DNA from: Yuukianura sp. NJ FZ-2021
Lineage: Eukaryota
Direction of reading: 5' to 3'
NCBI GenBank assembly: GCA_046563655.1
Contig: CM102289.1
Coordinates: 2,728,001 to 2,792,000 of the forward strand
DNA length: 64,000 nt
Program-made: the position numbers and the translations under genes
The notes under the pieces: model-generated
Told to the model about the DNA's origin: nothing
Databases searched by the model: none
What the model saw: only the letters and a program-made list of their open reading frames with translations
In this document: in pieces, positions 10,010 to 60,906 of the stretch
Layout: every line of letters starts with the position of its first letter
Numbering within the stretch: position 1 is the first letter of the stretch

Positions 10010-11970
10010 CGTTGGAACCACGTTGGCTTACTGAAAATACAAGCCTTCATCCATGTCGGATGCAGTAGAAAATGAAATATACCTTTCGTTTTGCAATTGA
10101 GTAGATTTGTGTATAACAGTAAAATAAAAATACAACATACAAGTCAAAAAAAAAGCTGCAAATAATATCCTTACATAAAAATTTAAATGCATTTTTGAAA
10201 TATTTTTTTTCACTGCTTCAAGCTTTCCTGTTGCCGATCACGTAAGGTGATGGCGACCTAGTAACGAAAGCAAATGCGTTGCAATTGTTTCAGTATTATT
10301 CCCGCCACCTTGGATTAATTTTTTGATTTTTTTCAATTTTCTGCGGGTGCATGTCCTGTGAAATTGAAATTGTACTAGCCTCTGTCTCAGTTTTTGGGCT
10401 GCCTGTATATCATTTTTAGACCTGGTATAAATGTTTTTTTTAGAAATTAAATATTTTTTTATTTAAAAAAAGTATTTCGCTATTTTAAAAAAATGTTTAC
10501 ATTTTTTTAAAATAGCGAAATATATTTTTAAAATATATATATATATAAAAAATGTAAACATTTTTTTAAATTTCTGCGTATCAGAGGTTCTTTTTAGTTC
10601 TAAAGAACAGCAGCCAGGTATAAATGGGATCACCGACAACCTTCCTGAGTTGTGTGCTAAAACAATATCATCAACGGAGGAAGAGCTGCAAAATGTAATG
10701 ATTTTAAAATCAAATATCAAATGAAAAATAATGTTTCATCACAACATTTTCCACTTACCCGTTGAAAATATAAAGTAAATTCTTAAAAAAAAAAACTAAG
10801 TCAAAAACCAAAATTAGCTCACCATAATATATGCTCATATGACAAAAAAGTAAATCAAATCGAAAGTATGCTAAATTTAGAACAGGTAGATATTTTATGT
10901 CTTTTTGAAACTTGGTTGAAAGAAGGTGGAGGGGTCATTGTGCCAAAAGGTTTTCATTTCTACAGTAAACCTAGAGTACAAAAAAGAGGAGGGGGGGTTG
11001 GAATTCTGTGTAGGAAAAACTTAAAAATAAACGATTTGTATATAGATGAAACTGAATTTAAAGTTCCTTTCTCATTAGAATATATGTGCAAAAAGGTGCA
11101 ACTTGGATTTAACAAAACAATTGTGGTTGTAGTGGTTTATATCCCAGACAAAAAATTAAATGATGCGGATTTGTTCAATTTGGAGCAGTTGTTTTTGCAA
11201 CTAATGCGATCAAATAGAGTATGTTTTGTATTGGGTGATTTAATCAGCGATTTTTTCAAAGTTGATAAATACACAAAGATACACAAATGAAACGTCTTTT
11301 TGAAAAATTAAATTTGAGTCAATTAGTGAAAGATAAAACGAGAAATCTTGCGCTGTTAGATTATATTGTCACCAATGATGTGACAGTAACAGAAGCTCAA
11401 GTCCACGAATTTGGTATTTCTGATCACGTTCTCAGTATTGTAGAATATAAAGTCAAAAATGTTAAAAAGAAAATGATAATTGAAGAGAAAAGAAACTTTT
11501 CTGAAATTGATCTAATTGAGCTAAATTTAATAATGGAAAATGCCGTCCTTATCCTTGGTAACGAATAGCCAAGTGAAATGTTGTTTAACAAATTCACTAA
11601 ACAAATTAATAAATTAATGACATTTTTAAAAAAAAGAAGACGAGTTAAGGAAAATTTAAGTCGTAATGTTGATCTTAATCCTGAATTGGAAGCCTTGTAT
11701 AAAGAGGCTAATGATTTGAGGAAAAAGTTCTGCAAAGCGAAAGTTGATTGTTTAAAGTTTGAGTTAAAAAAAATCAAGAAGGAAATCAAAGTCAAATTAA
11801 AGAAAACCATTTCTGAGAAGGTTTTAAAGCTTTTAAAGAAGAATAACGTGTGGGACGTTTTAAAAACTGAATTTCAATTTGATGTTGATGGCAAATTTAA
11901 ATGTGATAACGAAAACAATTTTGATCCTGAGGAACTAAATGAGTTTTATGTGAAAAATTCATTTGAACTT

Positions 11971-12126
11971 TTTTTTTTTTTTTTTGTGTTTTTGTGTCTT
12001 TTATTTAACAACACTTACACCCACAAAATGTGGGTTGAAAAAGTTATTGAAAATTCTGAGATTATAGTAGAAACACTTCTGTGAGATGATGTCCGGTGGG
12101 AAGGGTACCAAGAACGGAGGCTGGTA
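11971..12126 (-). mobile_element. 5'-truncated copy of the CRE-type RLE retrotransposon, with poly(A) tail and 10-bp TSD
   Basis: 12011-12123 matches 24670-24782 (6 mismatches in 113 bp by eye); poly(T) 11969-11985; TTTATT near 12000; TSD ATTTGAACTT at 11961-11970 and 12127-12136. Confidence 0.9.
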
Positions 12127-12584
12127 ATTTGAACTTGATGTTGAACCTTATGACACAAATCTAACCTCGAAAGTATTGCAAATTGTATAAAGTCTGATGA
12201 ATTGTTTTCTGTTGAAGAAGTCTCAACTGAAGATATTAAAATAAAAGGAAAATAATGAAGAGGAAAAATTCGGAAGTGGAAATTCTTGGTGTCAGTAAAA
12301 GAATGTTTAATGTTTTAATGAACTTTCACAATTTCGTCGAATTTTTGAGAACCTTTTGTGAAATCATTTTTGTAAAAGGCTGTATACCTCCTCAACTAAA
12401 AGTGACAAAAATTATTCCTATCCCAAAGATAAAGAATCCGAAAAGGCCTAAAGATCTGAGACCAATTGGAATTTCGCATTTTATAATGATTTTTCTTGAA
12501 AAGATATTTGTGAAAAAAGTGATTGAACATATTAACAAGAACAATTTTCTGAGTGACTACCAGTTTGGCTGTAGAAAAAAAAAT

Positions 12585-13094
12585 TTTTGCCAAAAACGGA
12601 AACGAAACGGAACGGTATTTCACAACACGGAAACGGAAACGGTCGAAACCAGGATAAACGAAAACGAAACGGAAACGGTTCAAGAAAAACGGTTAAGAAA
12701 CGGGAAAACCGTTGACGGTATCAGCTGTGGGGTCAATCATTTATACCATGACTAACATACTGCGGTACCAATAACCTAAGCCTCGCAATCATTGAAACCA
12801 TTTGACAATGATTACACATTGGCCTAATCACTCCCATTAGTCAAATCTGGGCATATTAAGTTGACAGGATCATAATTTTATGATTTTGCCAGCTTTATAA
12901 CATAAAAAAATGGTTTTTTGTGCATTCCGTGTTTCCCGTTTTTGATTTTGGTTGCCGTTTATTTTCCGTTTCGTATTACGGAGAAATGGAAAACGGAACG
13001 AATACAACCGCTTTCAAAATTTTTTAAAACGAAAACGGAAAAACCGGATTTGCCGTTTTGTTTCCCGTTTTAAACAAAAACGGCGGCACCCCTA
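12585..13094. mobile_element. One-ended hAT-like non-autonomous element rich in AAACGG subterminal motifs
   Basis: Many AAACGG/CCGTTT motifs in both orientations; right end CGGCACCCCTA (= TAGGGGTGCCG), similar to hAT TAGGG.. termini; left TIR not found; interrupts the LINE RT. Confidence 0.55.
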
Positions 13095-14340
13095 TTTAAA
13101 ATTTCTGACTTTTGGCTTCGTGACTACTTTAGTAATAGATTCCAATTTGTTGAGATGTTAAATAGAAAGTCGAAACTCATTAAAAATCCAACTGGTTTAA
13201 TTCAAGGGAGTGTCCTGGGACCAGTTTTCTTCACATATTTCATTAATGACATTCAATTGGTTATTAAAAATGGAAAGTTGATTATTTTTGTGGATGACAC
13301 TAGCATCATTTTTGTTTGCGACAAGAATGAAATTGGTGAAATGGTCGAAATAATAAATCAGGATATGAACAACTTAATAAAGTGGATTAAAAGTAACAAA
13401 CTGATGCTTAATGAAGAAAAAACAAAGCTTTTGGTATTTGGGTGTAAATATGGATTACTTAAAAATGCGATTTCTTTAAATGGAATTTTGGTCAATCAAA
13501 GTGAAAGTGTGAAAATGCTCGGGCTAATAGTAAATTCGAACCTAAAGTGGGATGAACAAGTTAATAGTGTTGTTCAAAAATGTTATGGAGTTATGGGATG
13601 CATTTATAAATATAAAGAATATTTCCCCCTAAAATCTAGACGTATTGTGTTAGAAGCCTTAGTGCTGTCTGTAATACAATATATGATGGTCGTTTGGGGT
13701 GAAACGACAAAGAAAAACTTAAAGAAAGTGGAAAAAGTCATAAGAACAATGGCAAGAATGGCACTCGATAACCCAGTTTCTGAAGATATGACAAAAGAAT
13801 TAAATTGGTTATATCCCGAGTCACTATTTAAGTATAAAGTATTAATATTGATGTACAAGTTAATGAATGAAAACTGTATAGCTGTACTTAATGATTATTA
13901 TAAAAAAAGTGGTGAAATTCACAGATATCCAACATCAAATGCATGTAATAAGACTAGAATTAGTTAAGGCAACTCGAATACAAAGGGAAAATATGGTAGC
14001 ATAACTTTTCAAACAAGATCGACACAATTATGGAATGAGCTAAAACAGGAAATACGTGAAGCTAAAAGTGTAACACAGTTTAAGCGTCTATTAAAAACTG
14101 AGCTAATTAGGATTCAGCTTGAGAAATATACTTAATTAGGTTAAATTTTAGCGAGGTATTAATTAGTATTTATATATTTTTGTATAGTATTAGGGTAAAG
14201 TAGGTTAGATTAGAATTAATATTTAACTTAACAACCAACAAAACTCGATTCTAAACTGCGTAAGGCAACTCCGGTGGGGGTAGTTAGAATATTGTATGGA
14301 AATGAAATAATGATCGTAAAATAAATCAACTTAAAATATA

Positions 14341-17861: not shown

Positions 17862-18280
17862 ATTAACTTGAATTTATAAGTGCTCATTAACTAAAAAAGC
17901 ATTGTCAAATAATGTTAATTGTTTATTTAATATGAATAATCCTGAACAATTGAATAAGCATTGAGGATAAATCTATAATTTAGAACTTTACAAACACGGC
18001 ATACGAATCGTAAAGTTGCCTTCTGACAACAAAATTTGAATTTGATTAAAATAAAATTCAGTTTTTGTATTATTACAGCATTAACAAATGTCGGATTGGA
18101 ATAAATTTTTGAATTGCAGCACGACATGCAAAACAAAGATAATTTTTTGGGGGAATTAAGTTCAACGATAAGTTTTGCATAGAGGTATATATTGCATGTT
18201 TAGGCTAAATCAAACGTTTTTTTTTAAAGTTGTGTACTTATTTGGAGCGGCCATAGCTTAAGGCTGTTCTGACATTCCTG

Positions 18281-21200
18281 TCACCAATTATATTTACTTC
18301 TTCCATGTCTATTTCGCGATCTCCTTCGAACGTTCGTTCTTCCAGCTTTACTTCCAGTGCTTTCTGCTGAGGTTGATGCTTTTTCCGACTTCCACTGCTT
18401 GCGAAAGGTTTTACCCGACCTGGACTTACCTCTTCCTGCTGCTTTCGACGTTCCGCGAGAAGTTCCTCCAGAATTTCGTTCAGCATTTTCGTAAGAATTT
18501 AACACTTCATAGTCCGAATCATAATCGTTTCTAAATACTTGTGAATTCCTTTCCGAAGCTTTTCCAGAACGTTTTGCAGAAGTAGATGCTTTTCCAGATT
18601 TGTTATTTGTTTTCGACGACATCGATTGATCACCTCCTGGTGTTTTTCGCCTTCCTTCAGGAGCGCCCTCAAAATTTTTATCCGCATCGGAATTTCCTTC
18701 AAAGCTACTCGTATAAGTGCCTTTAGAATTACTTGCAGTAGTTTTAGAGGGTCCTTCAGAATTTCTTCCAGAATTGGATGCTGTTTTTGATTTTGCATTC
18801 GTATTTGACGATGTTGTGCTGGAATTAGGTTGACCACGTCTTGTCGACTTTGAGGTTCCCATAGATGTAGCTTCCGAATTTCTTTCAAAGTTATTGTCAG
18901 GATTTGAATTCTCTCCAGAAGCTATTTTAGAGCGTCTTCTTTCAGAAGTGGATGCATTTTTTGATTTAGAACTCGACTTTGACGTGATTCTGCCAGAAGT
19001 GGATTGACCACGACTTTCTGATGTCGTAGTTTTGGATTTGGAGCCTTTCCTTTTGATCTCCGTATTTCCGGTTTCGTCGGTCACCTCTGCAGGTTTTTTC
19101 GAATTCGTGTCATCTTCAGGGTAAGTGTAGTAGTACACAACTTCATCGTCGCTGGGATATGCTTCATCATCTACCTGACTTTTACTGCTGGAAGCGTCAG
19201 ATGCGCTTTGGCTTTTCGGCTTATGTTTGATGGTACTTTTGTAGCCTTCAGATTCATCTTCTTGGACATAATCATCCCTTGAAGTTGATTTTGTTTCATC
19301 ACCGGTTGTGTCACTCTGATACTCATTGTATTCGTCATCGGAATCAAATTCACCTTTATCCGGTTTGTCAAATTCGCGTCTTTGGTAGGTTTTACTAGTC
19401 GTGAATTTCCCGCCCCTCTGACCTCTGTTCGGCCGACGTGAGTTGGATTGACGTCTATCGGGCTTGTTTTCTGGAGAGTTTCGGCCGCCCGTGTGATCAG
19501 ATTTGTAATACTGACGGCTTATTTGTGATTTACCGTTTTGCCTGGTGCCGTACCGTTCTCTACCGGATCGATCATCTTTCCGCAGGTTTTCACTTCGATC
19601 AGTGGCACGACGGTTTTTCGGTTCAATCTCTTCTTCGGGAGTTTCACTTTCACCTCTGCGAGAAACATTTTTGGAGTTTCCCTGCCGGACTCTTGTGCTC
19701 CTTTTTTCAGACTCTGTGGTTTCTGTATCTCCACTTTCTTCGCGTTTTCTGTCGGACGTATTCCAATTTCGCGGTTTTTTACTTCGACCTGGAGCTCCAC
19801 GGTTTTCCGGTTCATTCTCGTCTTCAACAATTTCACGGCTGCGGGAGACATCTTTCGAGTTTCCTTGCCGGATTCTTTCGCTTCTTTTTTCAGACTCTGC
19901 CATTTCTGTCTCTTCAACTTCTTCATCTTCACGTACTGTGGAACCTCTAACAGTATTTGGCCGCTTCGGTTTGCCACCTTGCGGGGCCTTTCGTTTTGGT
20001 GCCTCGGAATATTCGGAAGTTTCAGTGTTTTTAGTGGACGTACTCGCAGAATCTCCGGTGTTCTCTGTGTCTTCGCTTTGCAATTTTGAGTTATCCTCAG
20101 GTTTCTTCGTGGAATTTTGTCCATTTGTATTGTTTTTGAGAGATTCTGCTACAATCAATTTAACAATCTCTTCCCATTTTTTATACGACTCAGTGTCACT
20201 TGTTGCGTTCGGATTATCTTTTCCGGACGTTCCCGAACTTGCCTTTGCGTCAGGTACGGAATCCTTTTCGGTTTTGTCATCGGAACTGCCGGCAGCCTCA
20301 ATCTGCTCTTCATTGGTTGAAGTTCGATTTGCAGTGTCGTTTGTGCTTCCATTTTTCTCAGAAATTATCTTACCGGACGCAGATTTCGAACTTGGAGACT
20401 CAGATTTTGAAGCTGTTTGATTCTCGCTCGTTGTGTCACGCGCAACGCTGCCATTCATGTTGTTGTCCTTTTCTTCCTGTGAGGCGCCATTACTTTCACT
20501 TTCTGATCCAGTTTTACCGCCGTTTGACTCGTCTGCAGTGCTGGATTTGCCTGAACCGGAAGAAGAGCCATTCGCTTCCGTTTCCGTCTGTTTTTTAGTT
20601 TTAGTCTCTACCGTTTCAGTTTTCTTTGTGAAGCGTCCCGACTGTCCGGAATTCGCAGTGTCCGATTTGGTTACCTTTGGTTTCGGTTCAGGTTGAGCTT
20701 TAGTGTCATTTGACTGCGTGTGTGTATCGGTACGACTTTTGCCTTGTTTGGTGGTTTCAGTTTCTTGATTTGCTGCGGCTGAGTCACTTGTTGCTGGTGC
20801 TTCATCATCACCATTTTGACCTTGAACAGTTGAGGCTCCGAACGACTTTGGCCGGGATTGGTCCGAACTTTGTCCTGAGGCGACAGATTCAGCATTTGAT
20901 GGAGTTCTTGTAGATTTAGCACGTCCAGGTCCGCTAGATTCTGTTTCAGTCACAGTTTCGGATTCAGTTTCCACTTGAGAAACAGAAGTTTCTTCAAAAT
21001 CCTGTTCATCTTCAGACACTACTTTAACGACTTTCTCAAATTGTCCGGATTCTGGTAAATCTGGTGGATTTGAAGCGTCAGGCTCAGTTTCATTTTGATC
21101 ATCTTCGTCAGATTCAGATTCAGTGTCAATTAGGTACATGATGACACCTTTTCTACCAAGTCCCTTAAGGCCCCTGTGTTCCATTTCTTCTGCTTCTGCG

Positions 21201-22171
21201 TCATTCCGAGTCATAAACATTGTCTTCCACTGGCTATATGTAAGGCTCTTCGGATATGATTTGAAATATTTCTTTTTGAAACGGATTTCAGATAATTTTC
21301 CAGCGCGTTCGTCTTCTAAGCAATATTTTGCAAAGTCTGCACTTGAGGTAACTCTTTTCAACCGCCCTGTATCGCGATTCTGTTTGTTTTTAGTAGAGTA
21401 CTTGCTGCGAAGTGGAAACACAAAGTAGGCTCTTCGGACATAACGGATTTTACCTTTAGCGCGATACCATCTTACCACATAACGAATTCTGACTCGGAAA
21501 GTTCGTTTTTCAATGAACGTTTTCCGTTGGCCAGATTTTGATTTGTAGCTATACGTATACGTCCGCGTAATGAAACGCGGAATAGGTGTACATTCTTCTG
21601 CGCCGTTGCCATCTCTCCTGGATGAACTGTAGTTTTTGTATCTAGAGGTTGAAGTGGTCGTGGTCTTCACTTTTGACTTGTGCTTCCGTCTATGGGAATG
21701 GTCATCATCATCATCATCATAATCATTTCCATCTCCTCCTCCTCCTCCTCCACCTCCACCTCCTCCTCCTCTTCCGGAAGATCTGAAACTCTCGTAGGAA
21801 TCCGGCGTCAATTCCAATACTAAATTCAAAATTCATCGTTTTATGAAAAATGTAATTGAATTCCTTTTTCAAATTAATTGAATTCAATTTGATTAAAAAT
21901 TGCGAATTTAATTAAGTATAATTTTTACAAAACGATTTTAAACTTACTGGGAAGTTTCTTAGTCAAACCAGCTTTGAATCCCAGGGCGCGCAACGATGAA
22001 ATTCTGCCGTTGTCGTTTCTGTCCCTGCCAGCCACCTACAAAACAAAAACGTGGTTATGTATTATTATAATATTTATGTATTAATATAAGTAAAAATATT
22101 TTCAGGTTTACAGTAATTTGTAAGTCCAAGTTAAGAATTATGATCAGAAACAACCCCAAAGAAATGTCCAT
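18281..22171 (-). CDS. ~1228-aa secreted low-complexity charged/Ser-Thr-rich protein (exons 22171-22112, 22035-21948, 21819-18281)
   Basis: Signal-like exon MDISLGLFLIIILNLDLQIT; exon VAGRDRNDNGRISSLRALGFKAGLTKKLP; phase-consistent GT-AG junctions into a 3.5-kb open exon. Confidence 0.75.
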
Positions 22172-23240: not shown

Positions 23241-23943
23241 ATGGCTGTGTCAGCAGATCAAATCAATGAATGGAAACTAATGGACAACATTTATTTGGCA
23301 AGTCGGAAACTGGAAGAGGCCACAAAAGCTGTATTTCGTGATCGTGATCTTTATTTAAGAAGTATTACCACCGCGGCAAAAACGAAACCCACCGTACTTC
23401 AAGAACCGGAAACCGGTTCGAGTGGAATCTTCGGTAAGGCTTGTACCAAAGTCCTCATGGTATTTGGTGTGCTAAATAGTGCATTTTAATAGTTCACTTC
23501 ACGATGGAAAAAAATTTGATATACATTAGAGAGTAAACATTCGACAAGAAGTCAAATTTTTTTCTCTAAATCAGCACAACTCGTCAGTTTAAATGCGCTT
23601 TTATAAATCTGACTTTTTTACAGGATATTTACCAAGCAAAAAAACTGTTGCGATTGGGGCCGCCGTTGGAGTTACAGCGGTGTTGGCAACTCCATTGCTA
23701 ATTTCTGCCGTTGGATTTGGAGCTGCTGGGGTAACTGCTGGGTCATATGCTGCCGGTTATCAAGCAACATTGGGAGGAGTTATTGTTGCCGGAAGTAAAT
23801 TTTCATTGCTTCAAAGTGCCGGTGTTGTTGGTACTGCCTTAACTACCAAGACAATGATCGGTGTGGGCGGAGCAGCCGTTGGAGCAGGCACATCTGCTGC
23901 TGTGGATAAAATCCGCGGAGGTCCTCTGAAGGCCAAGTACTGA
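23241..23943 (+). CDS. IFI6/IFI27-like (ISG12-motif) protein, 170 aa (exons 23241-23433, 23624-23943)
   Basis: ISG12 motif AVGFGAAGVTAGSYAAGYQATLGGVIVAGSKFSLLQSAG; phase-1 GT-AG intron. Confidence 0.85.
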
Positions 23944-24646
23944 TCCATCTCTACGGATTAATGTTTAACCTATTAAGTACATTCCTGCAAGTGCAATGTC
24001 AAAATTTTTGTTTCGATTTCATACTATGTCTAATACACTACTACATAAATTAACTTAACAAGTAAGTACAAATTGTACATTGTAATTTGCCACTTCTTTA
24101 AACCTTTTCTAAAATCTTTTTTTTAAACAATTTCTGATCTTGTACGCCACAAAATCCTAATATAGTGCCTAGTGCGTCTGCTGTTTCTTAATGACTGTAA
24201 CATTACTGAAGCTGATGATAGTTCCTACTCGGATGAAAATCGAACTACCACTCTCAAGAACTTGTGAATTGATATTAAATTAACACGACTTCAAGTTGTT
24301 TTTGCATTCAAATTCAAGTTGTGGATACAGTTAAAATTTTCAAGTTGTTTTGTATACAGCTTTGTTTATAGTAAAATAAGTTGGGGATACGACATTTTCT
24401 GAATCTGAAATTTTCAAAATTGCCCAAAATCTGCAAATTATTTTATTTTATTCTAATGGTTTCCTATGTTAATTGTTCCGCTTTTCATTTTCAATTTAGT
24501 CGCTGCGCCCATGTTGGCTACTAATCCAAAATTTAAGTAGATAGTATATAACATGTGCTAAATTTTTATAACTTTGGTATTTCACCTATTGCTACCATCT
24601 TTCAGCTAGTGCTCTAAATACGTAAACTGGAAAATTTAAGATGAAA

Positions 24647-27600
24647 CGACTCAATTTATTCATTTGACTACACTTACACCCACCAAATGTGGGTTGAAAA
24701 GGTTATAGAAAAATCTGAGATTATAGTAGAAACACTTCTGTGAGATGATGTCCAGTGGGAAGGGTACCAAGAACGGAAGCTGCATTTCCGCGTTGGGTGG
24801 CAATGCTGAGGCGCTGGAATAAATAAGAGGTTGATTTCTTTTCGCCCGTGGTTTTCATGATCCTTGAACCGATTTCGCGAATGAATTTAACTGCGTCTTT
24901 CCCGAAAACACCAGTAGTCTCGATTGCAACTGCTACGAAGATGTAGTTATTTGAAAGGCTGCTGTAATGTGATTTCTTCCGAGTTTCGGCTTGGTGTGCG
25001 GCGTAACCGGCGTTGGAGGAAGAGTGTTGGACATATGAAGGTGCATAGGTGTCGACACAAGTAAAATCCCAGATTAACGACTTTCCGTTTTTCCAAGGCA
25101 CAAGCGTAAGACCATCAGGATGGCGCCCATCGTGTCTTGAGAGTCCAGGGGGTTCGCGAATACAAGGAGTGTCAGCTGTCCGCAGAGCGCGAAGGATGAG
25201 GTCATTGCAACTAGAATGTCTACAGGATCTTCCGGCACTCTTGGGACAATGGAGACCATGGAGGCCTAGAGAAGTAACTTCCTGACCGCAGTGACAAAGA
25301 TGAGGTTCACAGATGGTGCAACCCAGACGTAATCCGACAGAAATCTGGAAGGCCACATCATCTAAGTGAGTCCCAAGTTGTCTGGCTGGAAGAGCTTGTA
25401 GCCATGCGCCGGAATGTTTTTCTAGGCATGCTTTCAATCTTGCAGAGGACTCCAGCGAGGTTGAATTTTGTATGAGATTCTTGATTTTCTGCTGGAAAAA
25501 TGGTTCAACCCAGGCGTTTTGTGAGTTCAAGTTGGTAGAGATAGGTATTGTGTTTTGCTGGAGGCACCACATTTGACAAGCATCATTGAAAGCTGTATCT
25601 GAGTCGGCAACATGGCTTGGAACTAATTGACGGATAAGATTGCTACTGGAACAGAACGAGGCACAGAAGCAGGGCAGGGCAATTTCGGAAGCTTGATTGA
25701 TCCCGAGACCGCCAAGGTTGACGGGCAGAGAGGATTGAGCCCAGGAATCGGTGGATAAGTTGCAGTTTAAAGTGACTTCCAAACACTGTTTCAAGGCTGT
25801 GTCATAATCCAGGAGATGAGAAGAATGTTTCCACATGGGTGAGCTTCTTAGGAAGTAGACAAGTCGAGGGGTTGAGACCGAAGCACGTAGTAAAAAGAAG
25901 GCGGAATGAGAAGAGATTGACGTTAGCTTCTGAGATAGGTGCTTAAACTCGTCAGTTTTTGTCTTGAGAATCATCTTGGCTGAATCTTCTCCTAAAGCCG
26001 CTCCTAGAAGGGTGACTTCATTGGTAGAAATAATTTTAAGACCGGGAAGAAGATGTTTAAAATCGTCGACGAAGTGAGGCGTATGGTCATTCGTCCCCAA
26101 AATTGACAACTCGCATTTAGAAGAATTTAGTTCGAGTCCTAAATCCCCGGCGGCGGTGATGATAAAGTCTAGAGTTGAGATGACATCACTAGGATCTCCA
26201 CCGATTGTTCCATCGTCCAGAAACCAAAGATTCAATTCGGTTTTAATTTGCGTCACAATCTCGTGGATTGTTAAAGCGAAAAGAGCTGGACCCAAGTTAT
26301 CGCCTTGTTGGACACCTCGTCTAGATTTGATGACGTTCACGCCATGGTAAAGATTCGAGTCGAACTGATATGATTGTGACACGTAAGAAAAAATTGAGGG
26401 ATGATAAATCTTCACCGCATGAAGCAATTTGTCACGACGAAGTTCATTGAAGGCGTTTTTAAAATCCAACTTTAGTAAAACTCTGGAAGAATCATGTGTC
26501 GCGTTACAGTACATCCGGGCTGCGTGGGCTGCGGCTTCGGCGCCTCCGGGGATTCCGACACCCAGTTGGTTTGGGCTAAGGAGAGAACGTAATTCGCCGA
26601 TTATGCCATTTGAGATGACTTTAGAGGTTAGACGTCTCCAGATGTTTCCGATGGCAATCGGGCGTATCCCTCCATCCTTCTTCTTGATACCGATGAGTGA
26701 CGCTCCGAAGAAAATAGGTCTTATCGAATCCGGTAGAGGAGTAGTGGCGACAAAAGCAATGAAGGAGGTAATTTGCTTTAACAAATCTTGACCGGCATCT
26801 CCTGTGGAACTTGAAATTAAGTCCTTAAGGATCTGAGGACGAAGACCGTCAAGGCCACCTGCAGAGCCTGGGCGAAACGATGAAATGGCTTTGGAGACTG
26901 CTGGAGAAGAGATAAAGCCGAGGAAGAGAGAAGACGATTCAGGTGGATCAGGGAAACACGTAGGAGAAGGATGTGCAGGATGCTTTTGTTGTAGACTATT
27001 CAAGGTGTCTGAGTCCTCAGCAGCGACTGTGTCCTCTGATAGTAGTAGACGAAGGGCACCATGAATATCACCATCAGCGAGTTTTGCTTCAACTTTCTTT
27101 CCAACGAATTCTGGACTTGGAGAAGTAGACTTGGTGTTTTGCCTGGTAACAGGAAAATGACCCGCTTGACCCCGCATGCAGTCTGAGATTCTGGATTTGG
27201 TCCAGCTTGTTAAGTTTCCAGCGAAATCTTTTGATGGTAGGCTCAATACTTTGAAAGGCAGAGTAAACAGGTCTTCCCAAGATTGAACAGAGTTTTCGGT
27301 TTGTATTCTGTGAAGAGTGGTGGACAACAAAGATGACAGTTGTACTCTTGCGCCCTTAGGGCATCTTCTGAGGCAAGGGGTAGAGCGTTTCATTGTAGCC
27401 AATCGCAGTCCCAGATCTTCAGTAGAAGACATCTTGGAAGACCAAATGATTCCATAATGATTAAATCCGGATCCTAGACGAACTGGAGCTTTCCTGGTGG
27501 TGACTTCTGGGAAGCATCTTTTCAACAGTTTGCCGAGTGTCAGAGTAGATACGGGAGTAAGTTCGTTATCATGACAAAACGATTTGTACGTATTTTGTAA

Positions 27601-28314
27601 GTCCGTTCTTGATATGAAACAATCTGGAGTAGACGCAACGATGGATGAGGTCAGCCAAACAGTTGTCGTCGATGAAGGAGGAGTATGGGTACTGTCGTGT
27701 TCCAACCCGCATCCGTCGTTTGGACCGGCTCCGGAACACTCCACAGTGGCTGTGTTTACAGGCTGGCTTGATTTTTCAAGTGAAGCTGTTGAAGTTCCGG
27801 CGCAGGAAGGGCAAAACCAAGGACCAGTTGGAGCAGCAGATAAACCAACACAATTGAGATGAAACCATTCGATTTCGCAAAAGTCTCCGTTTTCACATCC
27901 GATCAATACTTGGTTTTCATCCAAACTGTTGTTGTCTTGACAAAAACAAAATTTTTTATTTTTATGACACGCTACTTTTTTGCGAGGCATCCTGGATTTT
28001 CGTGGATATTCTGATTGGTTGACTTGGAGACGGAACTTGATGGTGGCAATGTTTGTTTTTCAGTTGTGTAACTTGTGACGAACCGATGAGACTTCTAGTG
28101 GACGTTTTCGATGACAAAATCGGGCCAGTTGAAGGGGACCGAAAGAGTGACAGGTCCAAAAATCACCTCAAAAGATCCGCAACAATACGAGCAACAAGAT
28201 GAAACAAGCAAAAGTCGACAAAACTGAAACCTCCAACGCCAAAAGATCGAAAAGATCGGAGCCAATATTTGCGTGTTTTTGCTTTTTAATTTAATAATTT
28301 TTTAGATGAAAAGT
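24647..28314 (-). mobile_element. Full-length RLE-type (CRE-clade-like) non-LTR retrotransposon
   Basis: Single intact ORF; short 3' UTR with hairpin ACCCAC..GTGGGT (24678-24694) and AATAAA (24655-24660); candidate TSD TTTAAGATGAAA at 24635-24646 and 28315-28326. Ends are tentative. Confidence 0.85.
24721..27990 (-). CDS. PHD + RFX-like winged helix + reverse transcriptase + zinc knuckle + restriction-like endonuclease, 1089 aa
   Basis: PHD C15-C63 (FCFC..LIGCENGDFCEIEWFHLNCVGL..PTGPWFCPSC); wHTH W112-W183; RT motifs SAGGLDG, GGIRPIAIG, QLGVG, LDFKNAFN, GVQQGD, WFLDD; CHC..HGLHC; RH, HPDG..WD..AIET; CRE-like C-terminus QRLSIATQRGNAASVLGT. Confidence 0.92.
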   Translation of the reverse strand: MPRKKVACHKNKKFCFCQDNNSLDENQVLIGCENGDFCEIEWFHLNCVGLSAAPTGPWFCPSCAGTSTASLEKSSQPVNTATVECSGAGPNDGCGLEHDSTHTPPSSTTTVWLTSSIVASTPDCFISRTDLQNTYKSFCHDNELTPVSTLTLGKLLKRCFPEVTTRKAPVRLGSGFNHYGIIWSSKMSSTEDLGLRLATMKRSTPCLRRCPKGARVQLSSLLSTTLHRIQTENSVQSWEDLFTLPFKVLSLPSKDFAGNLTSWTKSRISDCMRGQAGHFPVTRQNTKSTSPSPEFVGKKVEAKLADGDIHGALRLLLSEDTVAAEDSDTLNSLQQKHPAHPSPTCFPDPPESSSLFLGFISSPAVSKAISSFRPGSAGGLDGLRPQILKDLISSSTGDAGQDLLKQITSFIAFVATTPLPDSIRPIFFGASLIGIKKKDGGIRPIAIGNIWRRLTSKVISNGIIGELRSLLSPNQLGVGIPGGAEAAAHAARMYCNATHDSSRVLLKLDFKNAFNELRRDKLLHAVKIYHPSIFSYVSQSYQFDSNLYHGVNVIKSRRGVQQGDNLGPALFALTIHEIVTQIKTELNLWFLDDGTIGGDPSDVISTLDFIITAAGDLGLELNSSKCELSILGTNDHTPHFVDDFKHLLPGLKIISTNEVTLLGAALGEDSAKMILKTKTDEFKHLSQKLTSISSHSAFFLLRASVSTPRLVYFLRSSPMWKHSSHLLDYDTALKQCLEVTLNCNLSTDSWAQSSLPVNLGGLGINQASEIALPCFCASFCSSSNLIRQLVPSHVADSDTAFNDACQMWCLQQNTIPISTNLNSQNAWVEPFFQQKIKNLIQNSTSLESSARLKACLEKHSGAWLQALPARQLGTHLDDVAFQISVGLRLGCTICEPHLCHCGQEVTSLGLHGLHCPKSAGRSCRHSSCNDLILRALRTADTPCIREPPGLSRHDGRHPDGLTLVPWKNGKSLIWDFTCVDTYAPSYVQHSSSNAGYAAHQAETRKKSHYSSLSNNYIFVAVAIETTGVFGKDAVKFIREIGSRIMKTTGEKKSTSYLFQRLSIATQRGNAASVLGTLPTGHHLTEVFLL

Positions 28315-28377
28315 TTTAAGATGAAAAGTTTTTTTTTTGCGTATTGTTCCGCTTTTATTTTCGGATATGCCTCGCGT

Positions 28378-29986
28378 TTAGTTGATTACCGTCACATTGC
28401 CTATTTGGAAGAAACGAACTGCTCTTCCGTTGAGTGGTTGAACAGGTCGAAAGTTGAAACTGGACGATTTTCCAGTAAGTCGTATGTGAAGAAACTCGTT
28501 CATCTGAAAAGTGAAACAAAAATTGAAACATTTGACAGTAGGTACTATAACCGATATGTTTCAATTGGAACCGAAATGACAACTCTTGAGCAAATTTTGA
28601 TGTTATTTACCTAGTTTTCTTCACTTTCAGGTTTTGTTTCAGCGGTGATAAAATGCTTGTGGAATATGAATATGGAATAAAATGTAACTTACTTGACGCA
28701 CGGAGATCGGTACTGTAGGTAAGAAAACCGTCCAGACGACTTTTTCGTCACAACCTGGTGTTGTAAGGGATCCCATGTATCGTGCAAAACCTGTTCGTTT
28801 TGGTAAGAAACTGAACATGTTGATTGGAAGGTTGTTGAATTCGACGACTGGACCTGGAATTTTTAACTTCTGCAGTGTAGTAACTACTGAATTCAATCTG
28901 GCATTGTCATACTCCGCAAGCTGGAATTAAAAAAATAAACAAAGTTTTAAGTTTTAAGCTCAAATTTCATTTCTTTAAAGAAGAATGCGCGAGTTACGTC
29001 GAAAAAAACACCAATGACATGAAGTGCATCTGCGTCACTAGAACGAGAAGCTTCTGTAAGCGACTTAAATTTTTCCTTGTAGTGAACAATATGTAGCTCC
29101 AATGGAAAAGCACGGTGACAAATATTGTGCTCAGATCCTGTTCCATTATGGACGCCTGCTCCCCAGTGGAAGTGGAACTGCGCGACAAAGTAGCACGAAC
29201 TCAATCCCAATCCACACATGCGCATGTCACTTGTGGCCTCAGATTTATTTGTAAAGACGTATTGCACTAAAGTATAAAAACAATCAACAACAAAATTTAA
29301 GCAGAATAATTTGCGTTTACTCTGTGTCCCAAAATCCTGGCGATCTTCGATGCAGCCGAATCTAAAAATCTAAAAATTTGACATTTTGAAAACCCATTAG
29401 AGAAACTGAATATTCTGTGTCATTTTCTTTAAAACTCTCGTTTCCGAAAAAAAAAATCAGAGGTGAATTGACGGGAAAACAAAAGGTTACGTGGAACACC
29501 CAGTAAAATTGTTTCGACTTTTCTGAATTTAATAACCAAATCTGAGTTTGGAATTAAATATTTTGTGTTGCTACTAACCTGTATGCCTGTTGTTTTGTCC
29601 GTATAAAGTGATGGTCTTATCGTTATAATACTGGGAATTTAGTTTCAATTCCAATGGTTCAAATTTTTGATTTTTTGGAACGTTAATGTCAATTGGAGAC
29701 TGCTTCTTTCCCGTTTGGCAAGATCCTCCCCAACTTGAACTTTTTGGACCACACTCAGGCTTGTCGTAGCAAAACGAATGGGCTTGAAAAAAATATATAA
29801 TTTGTAAAACATTTTTTTTTCAATTATTTTTTTAAATTTATAAGAAAGATGTAAATTTAAATTGATTTTGCTATGACTAATCTAGAGTTTGTTACATGCA
29901 GTATCAACATGGCCTGCGGCATCTACTTGCGCCAATATGACAAATCCCAGTGCCAAGAGTAGTTGAAGTTGCATTAAGTGTTTCAT
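28378..29986 (-). CDS. Secreted alpha-carbonic anhydrase A (exons 29986-29896, 29782-29579, 29266-28998, 28920-28693, 28503-28378)
   Basis: Signal peptide; QSPIDI, NNRHT, QFHFHWG, GSEH, ELHIVH, YMGSLTTPGC, NFRPVQPLNGR. Confidence 0.92.
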
Positions 29987-55778: not shown

Positions 55779-57216
55779 AAAGGTTTATTTAGGTAAGTGG
55801 GAGGTTTAGTTTTCTCCAAAACGTGTTTTGTTCAAATAGCTTTGGAAATTGTTAACTACACTTTGGCAGCCATCTTGGTTTAAATTTGCAATGTGATATT
55901 TAGACTTACGCCGAGAATAAAATTTTATCAAAACTTCTTTCATCATTAGCAGTCAAAAACAATGACCAACTAAATTTTTAAGGGAAGTTTCGCTGTTCAG
56001 GAAATTGACGTTCTCGCACTCACTCGTACGATTAAAAAATCCAATCATTTAGAATGGTAGAGATTCATCAAATTTTGAAAACTGAAAATGAGTAAGCGAG
56101 GCTTACTTCATGACAATGCAATTTTTCATTCCGCCATTTTCTTGTTTTAGTTATCGAATGTTTATCGCCTGCTTAAAATAACTGTGGCTCGAAAATAATT
56201 ACATTTGAAATTTTTTGTTGTTTAAACCTCCCTGTTGACGCGAATTATATTCTTTTGCTATAAATCATCATTTCTACGTCTATTTTCAAAAACATTTTGA
56301 ATTTCAATTTAGAATTTTTTTTAACGGTACAATGAACTCGAAAGTCTTTTTCTCAATTCTCAACTGCACGTCGGTAGTATTTTTTCACCATTTCATTTCA
56401 ACCAGAAGAAGCTTTGTCTAGAATATCAACGCCCAATTTCCCGTCGAAGGCAAAATTTTGAAAAATTTTTGAATTGTCTAATTAAAACTCGGTTTTTGTT
56501 TCTCCTTTTTGCAAATTTTCAAAACTCTACGGGCATGTTGACGGGCATGTACGAACTATGCAGAAGGCGAGAGGCTGGTAAAAACAACCATCAACATTTC
56601 ACTCCTTGTTCTTGCCAAATTATTATTTTTGAGAAACAATGACGATCTGGCAAATTTTGTCACGCAGTTACTTCGTACCAAAAAAAAATTCAGAGTAAAA
56701 GTGAGTCATATTCTAAATTTCAAAGTATAAGATTTCATAATTTTGTTATTTTGAATTTTGTAAACAGTCGTCCCCGGATGCAATTTTATCGAAATTTGGA
56801 AGTTCCTGAAGCAATTCCTCATGCTGTTTGTTGTAGCTATTGTAGTCGCTCACTTCATCAGTATTGCTGCAATCTTTCATTTCATTTCATTTATTCTCCT
56901 GTTTCTGGCAGGCTTTTCAGAATAAGTACTAAAGATAGTTTTAATGGTATGTAATTAATATTAGCAAATAGGTTTAGTGTAAATGTAGCAGTTGTGATTT
57001 AAAGAACGTTATGTTAATAGTTACTAGGATTATAGTTGAGAAGTGACTTTTCTAAGAATTAATTTTTTAAAAATGCTCCAATCGTTACTTTAAAATTAAA
57101 AAATTTAAGATTTATGATTTAGGGTGGCTTAATTATAATTATAATTATTATTAGTATTATTATTTTTAAATCTTTCATTTATAAAATAGCTATATTGCAA
57201 TAAGTATGTTCAATTG

Positions 57217-60060
57217 CTACTCTTCTTCGTCTACCTCAATTCGGCGTTCGAGTTCTTTGTGTTGGGCTTCCAGAAAATGGTCCTTAAGTTTCATTTTTAG
57301 TGCCGTCGGATTGGTAAGACGTCGGACATCTTCTTTCGTCTCCATCCACTTACGGAAACCACTTGCTTTGAAGGATTGAGGATGAATTTTTCGGTTTAGG
57401 TTTGCGACGTGAGTTTTCTTTCTAGTTGTTGTGCTTGATTGTGTAGACTGGACTTCATTGAAGTAATTCTTAAAGTAATTTGGACAGTTTTCTGAAACGA
57501 TAGTCGAAACTAACCATGTAGTACGGAAATCAGCTAGGTGTTTGGGAAAAAGCCATTTCAATTCGGACGTAATCTGCGTTTTCACCGGATCATATTTCTT
57601 TACGTTGAGTACGAATCTTCCCGCAGAACGAATAACTTTTTCCACAGTTTTGAGGTTTTGCTTGTTTGCTTTTCCCCAGATCTCGCACATATATGTAACG
57701 TAAGCTTCCATCATAGTTTTCCGGTTTTTCATATTAAGAAATCTTTGTAGAGGATAGAGTGAAGCTATGACACTGCGTGTTTTCTTAGAAATTGATGTAA
57801 TGTGAGCGTCCCATTTCATTGAATTGTCAATGATTAATCCTAAGCTGGTAATTTCTTTACTTGACTGAACATTTTCTCCGCAAATTAGAAAGTTCATTTC
57901 GCCGACACTTTTTAGGATACTGGGTTTGGCGCATAATAGAATTGCACTTTTTGTTGGGTTAATGATCAACTGATTTTCACTCATCCACTTAACGACAAAT
58001 TCCACACTTTCTTCTACTTCTTGTTTAAATTGTTGAAGGGTGCTTGGGTCACCTGTAACGACCATAGTGTTGTCGTCAGCAAACATGATGAGGAGATTTT
58101 TGCTAAATTTTTGGAATTGCAGTAGGAGATCATTGACCATGATGGTGAAAAGTAGAGGTGAAAGTATTCCGCCTTGTGGAGTTCCAAGTTTAATTTCTAT
58201 GTTTGCGGATTTTTCCCCGCCCAATGAGACGAATTGTTTCCGTGAAGATAGATAAGAGGAAAACCATTTGCGTTCGATTTCGTACCATGACAGCTTTTCA
58301 AGTAAAATCTTCTGGTTGACCGTATCGAAAGCTTTGGATAAATCTAGTGTTATGACGGCGCAGACTTTGTTTTTATGAAAGCCATCGTATAAGGCATCGG
58401 TTACTGCGAGTTGGGCGTGAACTGTTGAACTTCCTTTGATAAACCCGAATTGATTTTCGTGTATTACATTATTATGTTCCAAATGTTTCAGCAGTTGAGA
58501 TTTTGCGCTCTTTTCAATGATTTTAGAAAGTACAGGAAGAATTGATATGGGTCTGTAATCCTTTAGACCACAGGACTTCCGGCATTTGGGAATTGGAATA
58601 ATTTGCGCTTGCTTAAGAGAGTCTGGAACCACTGACGATTTGAAACTTTCGTTGATTATGTCTGTCACACTGTTGAGTATGTTAGGGGCCCGTAAAGTTA
58701 GTTCAATCATGTATGCGCATAGTCCAGTAGTGTCGGTTGTAGTTGAATTCTTTTTTTTCATATTGTTCCATGATGTAGCGACCTCTCGTGTTGTGACGTT
58801 TTTAAATTGAAACTTTTCCTTAATTGTTGGCAGACATTCGGGTTTATTTGGAGTTGGCGAGTCGTTAGGCCAGTTTGTAGGGAGGGATGCAAAAAAGTTG
58901 TTCAATTGGTCTGCATTAATTTTGGTTTCGTTTTGTTGTAGTTGCTTCTGGTTAACTTGGCAAAATTTGTTAACGGCTTTATGGATTCCGAAATGTTTTA
59001 TTTCGTTATTTAAATGATTTGTTGTGTCCGTTCTCACTGCGGAATTGACCAGCTTTTTGAAGGCCTTTAGCTTTTGGTTGTAGAATGGTTCCCCCAGCAT
59101 GTAGCGTTTGAAGTGGTCTCTCCTTTTCATCAGATCTCGGGTTGACTGGGTGAGCAAGCACTTATTTGGTCGTTCCCTGATTACAATTTTTCGAATTGGG
59201 GCATAAACATCAAAAATGTGTAATAATTTTGATGTAAGGAATTCTAGTTTCGAGTTGGCAGTACTGAGCGATGAAGTTTCTGGAATGTTGACGATAGAAC
59301 TCGCCAGTTGCTCGTAATTAATTTTCTTCAAATTACGAGAGAGAATAGTTGATCTCAGTTTCTGTGGCTTGCAACAGTGAATCTCAGCAAGAAGTAGGTC
59401 ATGGTCGGAAATGTTGCATTCAGTAACTTTGCAGGAAGCAATTGAAGTGGGTGAATTGGTCAGAAACAGATCAAGCATATTCACACCTCGAGTAGGTTCA
59501 TTGATTAGTTGTTTAAATGAATATATTTTTGCAATTCTTGACAGTTCTTTGTATTCCGAAACTGCTGGAAGGTTGAAATCACCAATTATGTAATGAGGAG
59601 AACCACCATTTTGAATATTTGCCATAAGGTTTTCAATTTTATTGAAATCATCATGTAGCACTTGGGTGAGTTTAGTGGGTGGGCGATAAGCACATGACAC
59701 TACAAAACTTTTGTTGAAGTTCACTTGTAGTTTTAATGTAATGGATTCTAGCGAATGATCTGTTGTAGAAGGGGATTTGGATTCACTTAGCACTTTAATA
59801 GTATTTTTAATTAAGATTCCAACGCCGCCACCACGTTTATGGATGCGATCATTTCTATAGAGAAGGAATCCTGGAGGTATGATTGCTTGGATACTTGCGT
59901 TTAGCCAGGTTTCACTTAGGCACAGAATGTCAATCTGATGTTCATCTAGAAGATTACAGATTTGGGGTAATTTATTTGAGAATGAGCGTATGTTGAGATG
60001 GCCTATTTTTAAGTGGAATTTGACTTTTACGTGTTTCTGTTGAGAAGTGTGCTGAGATAG
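57217..60060 (-). CDS. LINE ORF2 (APE endonuclease + RT), 947 codons open from the ORF1 stop, no AUG until codon 146
   Basis: Frame is open upstream of the track's GTG start: LSQHTSQQKHVKVKFHLKIGHLNIRS..IDILCLSETWL..RNDR..RGGGVGI; then YRPP, GDFN, SDH, DYRPIS, DLSKAFD, GTPQGG, FADD. Confidence 0.9.
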   Translation of the reverse strand, partial: LSQHTSQQKHVKVKFHLKIGHLNIRSFSNKLPQICNLLDEHQIDILCLSETWLNASIQAIIPPGFLLYRNDRIHKRGGGVGILIKNTIKVLSESKSPSTTDHSLESITLKLQVNFNKSFVVSCAYRPPTKLTQVLHDDFNKIENLMANIQNGGSPHYIIGDFNLPAVSEYKELSRIAKIYSFKQLINEPTRGVNMLDLFLTNSPTSIASCKVTECNISDHDLLLAEIHCCKPQKLRSTILSRNLKKINYEQLASSIVNIPETSSLSTANSKLEFLTSKLLHIFDVYAPIRKIVIRERPNKCLLTQSTRDLMKRRDHFKRYMLGEPFYNQKLKAFKKLVNSAVRTDTTNHLNNEIKHFGIHKAVNKFCQVNQKQLQQNETKINADQLNNFFASLPTNWPNDSPTPNKPECLPTIKEKFQFKNVTTREVATSWNNMKKKNSTTTDTTGLCAYMIELTLRAPNILNSVTDIINESFKSSVVPDSLKQAQIIPIPKCRKSCGLKDYRPISILPVLSKIIEKSAKSQLLKHLEHNNVIHENQFGFIKGSSTVHAQLAVTDALYDGFHKNKVCAVITLDLSKAFDTVNQKILLEKLSWYEIERKWFSSYLSSRKQFVSLGGEKSANIEIKLGTPQGGILSPLLFTIMVNDLLLQFQKFSKNLLIMFADDNTMVVTGDPSTLQQFKQEVEESVEFVVKWMSENQLIINPTKSAILLCAKPSILKSVGEMNFLICGENVQSSKEITSLGLIIDNSMKWDAHITSISKKTRSVIASLYPLQRFLNMKNRKTMMEAYVTYMCEIWGKANKQNLKTVEKVIRSAGRFVLNVKKYDPVKTQITSELKWLFPKHLADFRTTWLVSTIVSENCPNYFKNYFNEVQSTQSSTTTRKKTHVANLNRKIHPQSFKASGFRKWMETKEDVRRLTNPTALKMKLKDHFLEAQHKELERRIEVDEEE

Positions 60061-60906
60061 TCAGAATGACGAGGGCAGACTACTTGCACCCGGGTTTGCT
60101 TGTCGATTAGTCGGCCTCGGAGGGGAACGTAATGTTAAACTGCTTCGCGAGAAACCGGAAGTGCCATCGTAAGTTGTAGTTGGGACTGAAGCAGGAGTCG
60201 ATGTTCTTTGGGTAGGGTTGGTCATCGGTGGGATTGTTTCCGTAAGCTGTCTACGTGCGGCAATTTTCTTTCGCGTGGCTAGTGGTAAATCCTGTGTGAT
60301 ATTGATGTTTGGAATAATACTTTTGATAGTATTTTTGGCTTTCCATATGGCATTACGGGCTTCCAGTGATTTGAATGTCATCTTTATGGGCTTCGACGGA
60401 TTTTGTGTAGTCGGACGTCCTAGACGATAAAGATCATCGATTATTGGGTAAGTGAGCATTGGCACCGCTTGTGAGAAGATCCTTTCCATTTCTGCTTTAA
60501 CAGATTCCATTGTCTCATTGTTTGAATGTAGAAGACCGTGTATAATCAGGTTGCTTTTGTTGATAGTAATTTGGATTCTTTCCAGATCATCTTCATGCGT
60601 GTGGATTTGATTAACGAGCAATTTTTGTTGGTCTTCGGTAGCATAAACTCTGTCTTTAATATGCGATACTTCGGCACTCAGAGATTGGAATTGTTGAGTC
60701 AGTTCCGTATGATTCGCAGTAACAGTGTCGTTCAGGGTCGATACTTGGTCGGCGAGTTTGTTTACAGTTTGATTGAGGGTGTTTAAAGCTGCTAGGATGG
60801 ATGCTGATTCTGTTTCTCCCATTTTCAGTGACTTATTTGAAGGTGAATCTTCGTTTTTGGACTTCCGTTTCTTTCCACGAGTCTTCGGTTCGTCGACTGA
60901 GGTCAT
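60061..60906 (-). CDS. LINE ORF1 (coiled coil + RRM-like + CTD), 281 aa
   Basis: Basic N-terminus, heptad-rich LNTLNQTVNKLADQVSTLNDTV..., NLIIHGL, YRLGRP..KPIKMTF, INITQDLP. Confidence 0.88.
   Translation of the reverse strand: MTSVDEPKTRGKKRKSKNEDSPSNKSLKMGETESASILAALNTLNQTVNKLADQVSTLNDTVTANHTELTQQFQSLSAEVSHIKDRVYATEDQQKLLVNQIHTHEDDLERIQITINKSNLIIHGLLHSNNETMESVKAEMERIFSQAVPMLTYPIIDDLYRLGRPTTQNPSKPIKMTFKSLEARNAIWKAKNTIKSIIPNINITQDLPLATRKKIAARRQLTETIPPMTNPTQRTSTPASVPTTTYDGTSGFSRSSLTLRSPPRPTNRQANPGASSLPSSF

Follow-up and report, generated by a model that had tools for sequence, protein, structure and literature searches.

What guides a retrotransposon to its insertion sites when its protein opens with a histone-reader type of finger followed by a winged helix? 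The question is raised by a 3,668-bp insertion on the minus strand of the window, by which we mean the whole 64,000-nucleotide stretch analysed here (Yuukianura sp. NJ FZ-2021, assembly GCA_046563655.1, contig CM102289.1, positions 2,728,001 to 2,792,000). An earlier note on this DNA had described a retrotransposon with a restriction-like endonuclease (RLE), an ING-like PHD finger and an RFX-like winged helix, and had proposed that its family replaced its targeting module and may choose sites by chromatin state. The insertion is a young, intact R2-type retrotransposon without long terminal repeats (non-LTR) whose site is still empty on some chromosomes in the sampled population, and we lean, with modest rather than firm confidence, toward the overall explanation that its PHD+RFX module docks the ribonucleoprotein on chromatin. 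The label "integrase-like" given to the system in the earlier note is a misnomer; the enzyme is predicted to work by target-primed reverse transcription and to cut with a restriction-like nuclease.

The protein is encoded by a single open reading frame (ORF) that is open throughout, as had been claimed, and the correspondence between residues and nucleotides given for the two N-terminal domains (residues 14-63 at 27951-27802 and residues 111-183 at 27660-27442) is exact. The ORF and its predicted parts, from the N-terminus on, are the following.

24721-27990, minus strand: single intact ORF, 1089 aa and stop (standard code)
27802-27951, minus strand: predicted ING-type PHD finger, residues 14-63 (phmmer, Pfam, AlphaFold/Foldseek)
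27670-27801, minus strand: Ser/Thr/Pro-rich linker, residues 64-107, predicted to be disordered
27442-27669, minus strand: predicted RFX-type winged-helix DNA-binding domain, residues 108-183 (Pfam, matches to PDB sequences, AlphaFold/Foldseek)
26689-27405, minus strand: family-specific helical region and motifs preceding the reverse transcriptase (RT), residues 196-434 (LRRCPKGAR, KKVEAKLADGD, GSAGGLDGLRPQ; family alignment)
26002-26688, minus strand: RT (RVT_1), residues 435-663, with FLDDG at 590-594 (Pfam, E 1e-20)
25246-25296, minus strand: CCHC zinc knuckle, C899, C901, H911 and C915 (family alignment, R2 alignment)
24901-25221, minus strand: predicted restriction-like endonuclease of PD-(D/E)xK type, RH 924-925, D959, D975, K1005, Y1009 and E1024 (family invariants, R2Tg alignment, model)

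When residues 1-200 were searched with phmmer against PDB sequences, residues 12-68 matched the PHD fingers of ING3, ING1, ING4, ING2 and ING5 (E 3e-12 to 6e-10), followed in the ranking by yeast Yng1, Yng2 and Pho23 and by TAF3; all Cys4-His-Cys3 ligands are aligned with those of ING3 (E 3e-12). The generic Pfam PHD model scores 22.6 bits on residues 1-70 alone, just below its cut-off of 24. In ING PHD fingers the cage for histone H3 trimethylated at Lys4 (H3K4me3) is formed by Y, M and W. The ING3 and ING1 alignments agree in placing F14, L29 and W42 of the window protein at these positions, which bears out the substitutions read in the earlier note, and F at the first cage position is also seen in an ING-like cellular match (P0172). 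The window copy and three related proteins (P0009, P0129 and P0134) retain the ING signature with its Trp ahead of [FY]H, and in P0129 the Y/M/W cage is complete. When residues 1-200 were modelled with AlphaFold on a 13-row alignment, the predicted local distance difference test score (pLDDT) was ~86-97 in the PHD and RFX domains and less than 50 in the linker, and Foldseek matched this model with the PHD fingers of ING1-5 at E 2e-3 to 6e-3 (TM-score ~0.78), most of them solved with H3K4me3 peptides. Sequence and model agree in presenting residues 14-63 as a genuine ING-type PHD finger. It is 39-55% identical to human ING PHDs and shares 12-14 of 50 residues with the PHDs of its relatives; ahead of it lies a basic N-terminus, PRKKVACHKNKK.

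The second domain is matched by the Pfam RFX_DNA_binding model (residues 108-181) at 44.8 bits when the whole protein is scanned and at 50.4 bits for the domain by itself, the cut-off being 27. Among PDB sequences it matches the DNA-binding domain of RFX1 (1dp7; E 7e-5) and RFX5 (E 2e-3), and the same two come up in the Foldseek search of the N-terminal model (RFX5, E 1.6e-5; RFX1, E 1.8e-5), with TM-scores on the target of 0.85 and 0.88 and a root-mean-square deviation of 1.9 A. The window protein retains the GK of RFX helix 3 and the [HY]YG[IL] strand, and its wing reads TTRKAPVRLGSGFNHYGI, compared with RTRRLGTRGNSKYHYYGL in RFX1. A winged helix of the D5/P4-primase type, the alternative named in the earlier note, was rejected: Pox_D5 reached E 0.09 in Pfam versus 3.5e-13 for RFX, and in Foldseek the phage P4 origin-binding domain (1ka8) and the PrimPol of African swine fever virus (8iqh) reached E 0.37 and 0.22, versus 1.6e-5 for RFX. 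Since Pfam and Foldseek both favour RFX, residues 108-183 are, on these sequence and model grounds, a genuine RFX-type winged helix.

What kind of enzyme follows this pair of domains? Residues 196-434 are conserved in the family regardless of which N-terminal module precedes them, and the alignment with R2 begins at profile position 288. In a 25-sequence family alignment, C899, H911, C915, R924-H925, D959 (of PD), D975, K1005, Y1009 and E1024 are invariant and C901 nearly so, and alignment with avian R2 proteins (R2Tg) places these residues in their zinc knuckle and nuclease. The part from the RT to the C-terminus, used as a single sequence, matches R2 and LINE-1 proteins weakly (E ~2e-3). With the 25-member family profile, E falls to 2e-24 for two solved R2 proteins, one of them zebra-finch R2Tg, and to 1.5e-9 for the LINE-1 RT, the match to R2 being one collinear stretch that runs through the pre-RT motifs, RT, linker, CCHC knuckle and nuclease. 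A full-length model (pLDDT 84.6, predicted TM-score 0.77) is matched best in Foldseek by R2Tg, R2Bm and turtle R2 (E 4.5e-22 to 2e-20, TM-score ~0.5-0.64), with weaker matches to LINE-1 ORF2p (E 3e-15) and Prp8. Because the profile match to R2 is collinear and the model also matches R2 best, we take the window protein to be an R2-type RLE protein of a long interspersed nuclear element (LINE), in keeping with the earlier reading of an RLE-type element with a zinc knuckle and a PD-(D/E)xK-type nuclease. Pfam detected no apurinic/apyrimidinic endonuclease (APE) domain in the window protein; by alignment and model, a C-terminal PD-(D/E)xK-type nuclease is present in place of an N-terminal APE.

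The combination of the two N-terminal domains is not peculiar to this copy. A word-indexed search of 5.8 billion proteins returned 131 relatives, the best at 45-49% identity; the 120 that were listed form, with the window protein, a family set of 121. Pfam, applied to the window protein and the first 48 relatives listed, placed RFX at or above its cut-off in 7 of the 49 and weakly in 2 more, and family-specific hidden Markov models found, among the matches listed, RFX in 12/121, an N-terminal PHD finger in 20/121 and both in 5/121. The proteins with both are that of the window and four others, all full-length and at 39-45% identity: P0002, P0009, P0022 and P0005, the last named as coming from the springtail Folsomia candida. 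Automatic annotation has labelled one springtail relative "RFX-type winged-helix domain-containing", so the RFX domain is visible to such pipelines. A HMMER search of 1.84 billion representative proteins with residues 1-190 gave 2,715 matches at E <=0.001 and 21 at E <=1e-10, and the bulk of the matches resembles ING-type proteins with a C-terminal PHD; among the 20 top matches, Pfam found PHD and RFX together solely in two short, retroelement-like N-terminal fragments, P0129 and P0134. A look-up in the ESM Atlas yielded PHD+RVT_1 clusters with scores of 0.89-0.90, which are leads only. We note among the matches to the N-terminal query six proteins of ~930-1090 aa (P0125, P0126, P0131, P0135, P0144 and P0254) with 4-5 tandem RFX DNA-binding domains, in which other Pfam families are limited to weak winged-helix matches of Pox_D5 or Cdc6_C.

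A FastTree phylogeny of the enzyme core was built from 97 of the 121 proteins, 24 truncated ones, including the RFX-bearing P0118, having been excluded. All 11 RFX-bearing rows fall within one 21-row clade (local support 98) whose basal pair carries PHD+RFX and whose cores are 40-50% identical to that of the window protein. This clustering of the RFX-bearing rows indicates that the PHD+RFX module was inherited and is old relative to the 40-50% core divergence, and, together with the four full-length proteins, it disposes of the concern that the architecture might be a one-off chimera. Within the RFX clade, C2H2 fingers take the place of the module in one subclade, and the proteins of several members begin at the RFX domain itself. 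An OTU protease domain plus C2H2 fingers (OTU+C2H2) is the arrangement in the sister clade, and clades further off have only a PHD or a CxxC...HG...CxG motif. The PHD and RFX domains can be aligned across relatives and the linker cannot. The PHD+RFX pair is one of several interchangeable N-terminal modules on one enzyme core, and the proposal that the targeting module was replaced fits the core tree because the family swaps such modules freely. The Cys/His motif of the more distant clades, CxxC...(L)xxHG(P)...CxGS...P, lies near the N-terminus of many relatives with an unchanged core enzyme (e.g. P0034, P0037, P0050, P0089 and P0097-P0102) and, in the 49 proteins scanned with Pfam, went without a match at E <=0.01.

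Evidence that the element is mobile comes from its own boundaries, from publicly available contigs compared with positions 23800-29000 of the window (four runs, three from one sample and one from another study) and from a second copy in the window. The parts of the insertion outside the ORF, with its flanks, are as follows.

24647-28314, minus strand: whole inserted element (empty-site contig, coordinates then refined by reading the flanks)
28315-28326, minus strand: target-site duplication, upstream copy, TTTCATCTTAAA (flank reading; single occurrence in the empty-site contig)
24635-24646, minus strand: target-site duplication, downstream copy, TTTCATCTTAAA (flank reading; empty-site joint at 24646)
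28281-28314, minus strand: ~34 extra bases at the 5' junction, starting ACTTTTCATCTAAA... (other copies' contigs diverge beyond 28277-28280)
27991-28280, minus strand: 5' untranslated region (UTR) of ~290 nt, common to other copies, without ORF or Rfam match
24647-24720, minus strand: short 3' UTR (to ~24662) and 15-nt private tail GAATAAATTGAGTCG (ends of other copies at 24662-24674)

The empty site is documented by a 13.9-kb contig and a second contig, which connect 24646 to 28330/28331 with two letters between them. In the sample that has the empty site, contigs also span both junctions of the filled site with zero mismatches, and the filled 5' junction is spanned by a contig from the second study as well. 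The window copy is thus polymorphic, which argues that it was recently active. The two TTTCATCTTAAA copies are identical at 12/12 bp, and the extra bases at the 5' junction are private to the window copy, their start (ACTTTTCATCTAAA...) resembling the target. An exact 14-bp repeat, AAAAGCGGAACAAT, considered as an alternative target-site duplication, was ruled out by the empty-site contig. Its two copies, at 28343-28356 and 24472-24485 on the minus strand (20/21 with one indel when extended), bracket the empty site 17 bp upstream and ~150 bp downstream of the insertion point; it occurs at these two places only in the window, and at least 2 matches with <=2 mismatches arose in 7/100 shuffles.

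The same runs contain many further copies. In one run, X1, 113 contigs fall on the region, 45 at >=99% likeness, 33 at 95-99%, 30 at 90-95% and 5 below 90%. The contigs of other copies depart from the window sequence at 28280 (X1) and at 28277 and 28279 (a second run, X4) on the 5' side and at 24662-24674 on the 3' side, and we therefore take 28277-28280 and 24662-24674 as the common ends of the family; beyond these shared ends they run into mutually different flanks. Among the rows listed, four length changes in the PHD-RFX linker of other copies, at 27670 and 27769/27771, amount to three in-frame variants (3, 1+2 and 3 bases). The element exceeds its flanks in summed contig depth, with a peak at 24670-24843; depth here is not a copy number, and the pattern is no more than consistent with many 3' fragments. 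Another copy, with its loose end at 28279, has an upstream flank that finishes in CCCTAACCTA / ...CAACCCTAACCTA, which resembles a TTAGG-type telomeric repeat read on the other strand; with 30 letters visible, it was not taken as evidence of telomere targeting.

The second copy in the window is 5'-truncated.

11971-12123, minus strand: last 19 codons, 3' UTR and A-rich tail of a second copy (92.7% identity over 124 bp)
12127-12136 and, for the other copy, 11961-11970, minus strand: 10-bp target-site duplication of the truncated copy, AAGTTCAAAT (flank reading)

This copy has 3 extra bases (TAC) at its 5' junction, the first AA of its AAGTTCAAAT may belong to the A tail, and its 3' end lies at the same point as the ends of the other copies. 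Its host, at 10787-13967 on the plus strand, is a decayed APE-type LINE with endonuclease-like and RT-like ORFs broken over several frames. The marks of target-primed reverse transcription are all present (12-bp and 10-bp duplications, 5' truncation and extra bases at 5' junctions), and the family has no single target sequence, its copies lying at unrelated sites. Rfam gave 0 matches, ribozymes included, at E up to 1 across 24300-28600, and a ribozyme like that of hepatitis delta virus, as found in R2, was therefore not detected in the element; a small hairpin in the 3' UTR was not significant against shuffles (z -1.1).

The truncated copy, inserted within another LINE, offers one of two readable insertion sites. 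The other is that of the window element, which lies between two convergent genes, ~65 bp 3' of the stop codon of the first of these:

~28380-28960, minus strand: alpha-carbonic-anhydrase-like gene, last exons (...YMGSLTTPGCDEKVVW..., ...NFRPVQPLNGRAV...), stop near 28380
23241-23943, plus strand: convergent gene, two ORFs, the second of 116 aa, Gly/Ala-rich and hydrophobic

Both sites are AT-rich. The carbonic-anhydrase-like gene has an AATAAA at ~28355-28360, and the element, which shares its orientation, sits just past the likely poly(A) site; the second ORF of the convergent gene ends ~700 bp from the 3' end of the element. Elsewhere in the window, the 2-kb composition profile shows strong negative AT skew at 18001-22000 (-0.27 to -0.31) and 56001-62000 (about -0.13 to -0.15).

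How does the element compare with known systems? R2 (R2Bm and R2Tg, with solved complexes of target-primed reverse transcription 8gh6, 9nl3 and 9dou) has the same single-ORF order from an N-terminal nucleic-acid-binding module through to the nuclease, and its proteins are the best sequence-profile and structural matches. The window protein differs from them in having neither C2H2 nor Myb domains (Pfam found PHD and RFX only), and the element differs from the R2 clade proper in that it does not reside in 28S ribosomal DNA and occurs at many sites with 10-12 bp duplications. The RLE-type enzyme is also common to the CRE clade (CRE1/2, SLACS, CZAR) and to NeSL/Utopia, R4 and Hero; the earlier note called the RT CRE-like, a label that we keep as a candidate placement only. 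Known CRE and other RLE clade members rely on zinc fingers, and their targets are spliced-leader genes or other repeats; we know of no member of CRE, NeSL/Utopia, R4 or Hero with PHD or RFX. Integration tethered to chromatin is familiar from LTR elements, as in the chromodomain integrases of chromoviruses, Ty5-Sir4 and HIV-LEDGF. If the PHD finger reads a histone mark the present element would be similar to these, in which a reader is fused to the integrating enzyme or recruited by it, with the difference that its enzyme is predicted to act by target-primed reverse transcription and is not a DDE integrase. With cellular ING proteins it shares the PHD fold, which in those proteins of ~240-420 aa is C-terminal, and with RFX transcription factors, which have neither PHD nor RT, the DNA-binding domain.

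The BLAG elements of the cockroach are described in PMC7650587 as R2-like elements with dispersed insertions, C2H2 fingers and a "Blag" motif pair, their variable number of N-terminal fingers being attributed to recombination between elements. They share with the window element the R2-like enzyme and the dispersed insertions; their proteins are without PHD or RFX, and neither Blag motif is seen, by eye only, in the window protein. According to PMC8557442, PHD fingers occur in ORF1 of CR1, in Chlamys Penelope-like elements and in a number of DNA transposons; the PHD of CR1-like LINEs belongs to a separate ORF1 of APE-type elements and that of Chlamys and the DNA transposons is inserted in the RT or the endonuclease. 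Unlike these, the window element has its PHD fused N-terminally to an RLE-type RT protein and paired with RFX. The earlier note knew of no description of this architecture, and we found none in the full-text literature, Repbase and Dfam lying outside the scope of that search: no paper found described a retrotransposon with an RFX domain or an RLE-type LINE with a PHD (papers on site-specific LINEs and on their engineering included), and none of the papers that mention RFX together with non-LTR elements has, by title, a transposon-encoded RFX domain as its topic. The PHD+RFX architecture may sit unremarked in Repbase or Dfam.

Because the PHD+RFX module is located where R2 has its DNA-binding fingers and Myb domain, we take it as a docking module, a role that by this analogy it probably fulfils. 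The protein would bind its own RNA, as its resemblance to the solved R2 complexes suggests, and the module would anchor the ribonucleoprotein to chromatin, where the winged helix would contact DNA and the PHD finger a histone H3 tail, most likely methylated at K4. The nuclease would then nick one strand, the RT would prime cDNA synthesis at the nick, and a second nick 10-12 bp away would give rise to the target-site duplication. Site choice would follow nucleosome or chromatin context with at most a loose DNA preference, unlike the one fixed sequence of R2. That methylation of H3K4 guides this choice is a tentative suggestion, favoured by the retained ING signature and cage Trp and by a PHD that is nearer to human ING fingers than to those of its relatives. 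The fullest version of the idea, namely a nucleosome-guided LINE whose winged helix sits on nucleosomal DNA while the PHD reads H3K4me2/3, such that nicking and reverse transcription take place beside marked nucleosomes, we consider doubtful.

Several observations weigh against docking by the paired module and against reading of H3K4 methylation. Some members of the RFX clade have no PHD; relatives differ at the first cage position, where P0009 has T, P0002 and P0005 have H and P0022 has I; and the window PHD has a 5-residue insertion after its first Cys pair, in the loop that carries the Ser/Met contacts of ING. The RFX wing is unlike that of RFX1 (RRLGTRGNSKYHYYG), a difference that renders X-box-like specificity doubtful. 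The N-terminal module evolves faster than the core (24-30% versus 45-60% identity), the tree that places it has local support only and is midpoint-rooted, and neither of the two readable insertion sites, at a gene's 3' end between convergent genes and inside a LINE, is an obvious promoter or an expected site of H3K4me3.

Some of these points lend themselves to a different reading, in which the RFX winged helix alone would target the element through a loose AT-rich or structural preference in replacement of C2H2/Myb, and the PHD, rather than reading methyl-lysine, would be a structural zinc module, bind unmodified H3 or mediate contact between proteins. Several clade members (P0006, P0014 and P0016) begin directly with RFX, and the absence of a PHD from them marks it as dispensable for the lineage; the variability of the first cage residue and the position of both insertion sites in AT-rich DNA away from promoters point the same way. 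PHD fingers are moreover, according to PMC8557442, a common accessory domain of transposons whose role in targeting is not shown. Against this, the window PHD keeps the ING signature and the Trp, P0129 has the complete cage, and the nearest structural matches are ING PHDs that were solved with H3K4me3 peptides, such that we judge targeting by RFX alone to be rather unlikely.

Less probable still is a role of the PHD+RFX module outside integration, be it in nuclear import or retention, in regulation of the element's own promoter, or in the evasion or recruitment of host chromatin factors. The basic N-terminus ahead of the PHD would suit such a role, and the PHD fingers of other transposons have been proposed, in PMC8557442, to serve chromatin restructuring; the module nonetheless occupies the position of the target-DNA-binding domains of R2 and is exchanged with classical DNA-binding fingers in sister lineages. 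Finally, it is barely credible that the locus is an assembly artefact, a domesticated gene of the host or a single chimera that picked up host ING and RFX exons, for although the window PHD is closer to cellular ING PHDs than to those of relatives, the architecture is repeated in the four other full-length proteins (one of them from a springtail) and the two N-terminal fragments, and the insertion has a target-site duplication, an empty-site allele, many copies with different flanks, a truncated copy and filled junctions in two studies.

Site-specific target-primed reverse transcription has its model in R2-type enzymes, which are being engineered for gene insertion, with the N-terminal DNA-binding module setting the aim. 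As far as our search of the literature reaches, the predicted winged helix of this element is the first RFX-type domain in a retrotransposon protein, and the lineage as a whole shows a natural exchange of the N-terminal module (C2H2, OTU+C2H2, PHD alone, PHD+RFX) on a conserved enzyme core. Were the nucleosome-guided reading true, the element would be the first case in nature of target-primed reverse transcription steered by a histone mark, and it would provide a ready example of how R2-type gene-writing enzymes may be re-aimed through exchange of their N-terminal module. More generally, if the PHD+RFX module steers integration, it would tie the targeting of a LINE to chromatin state as chromodomains do for LTR elements, and how LINEs read chromatin would become testable with two small, well-behaved domains.

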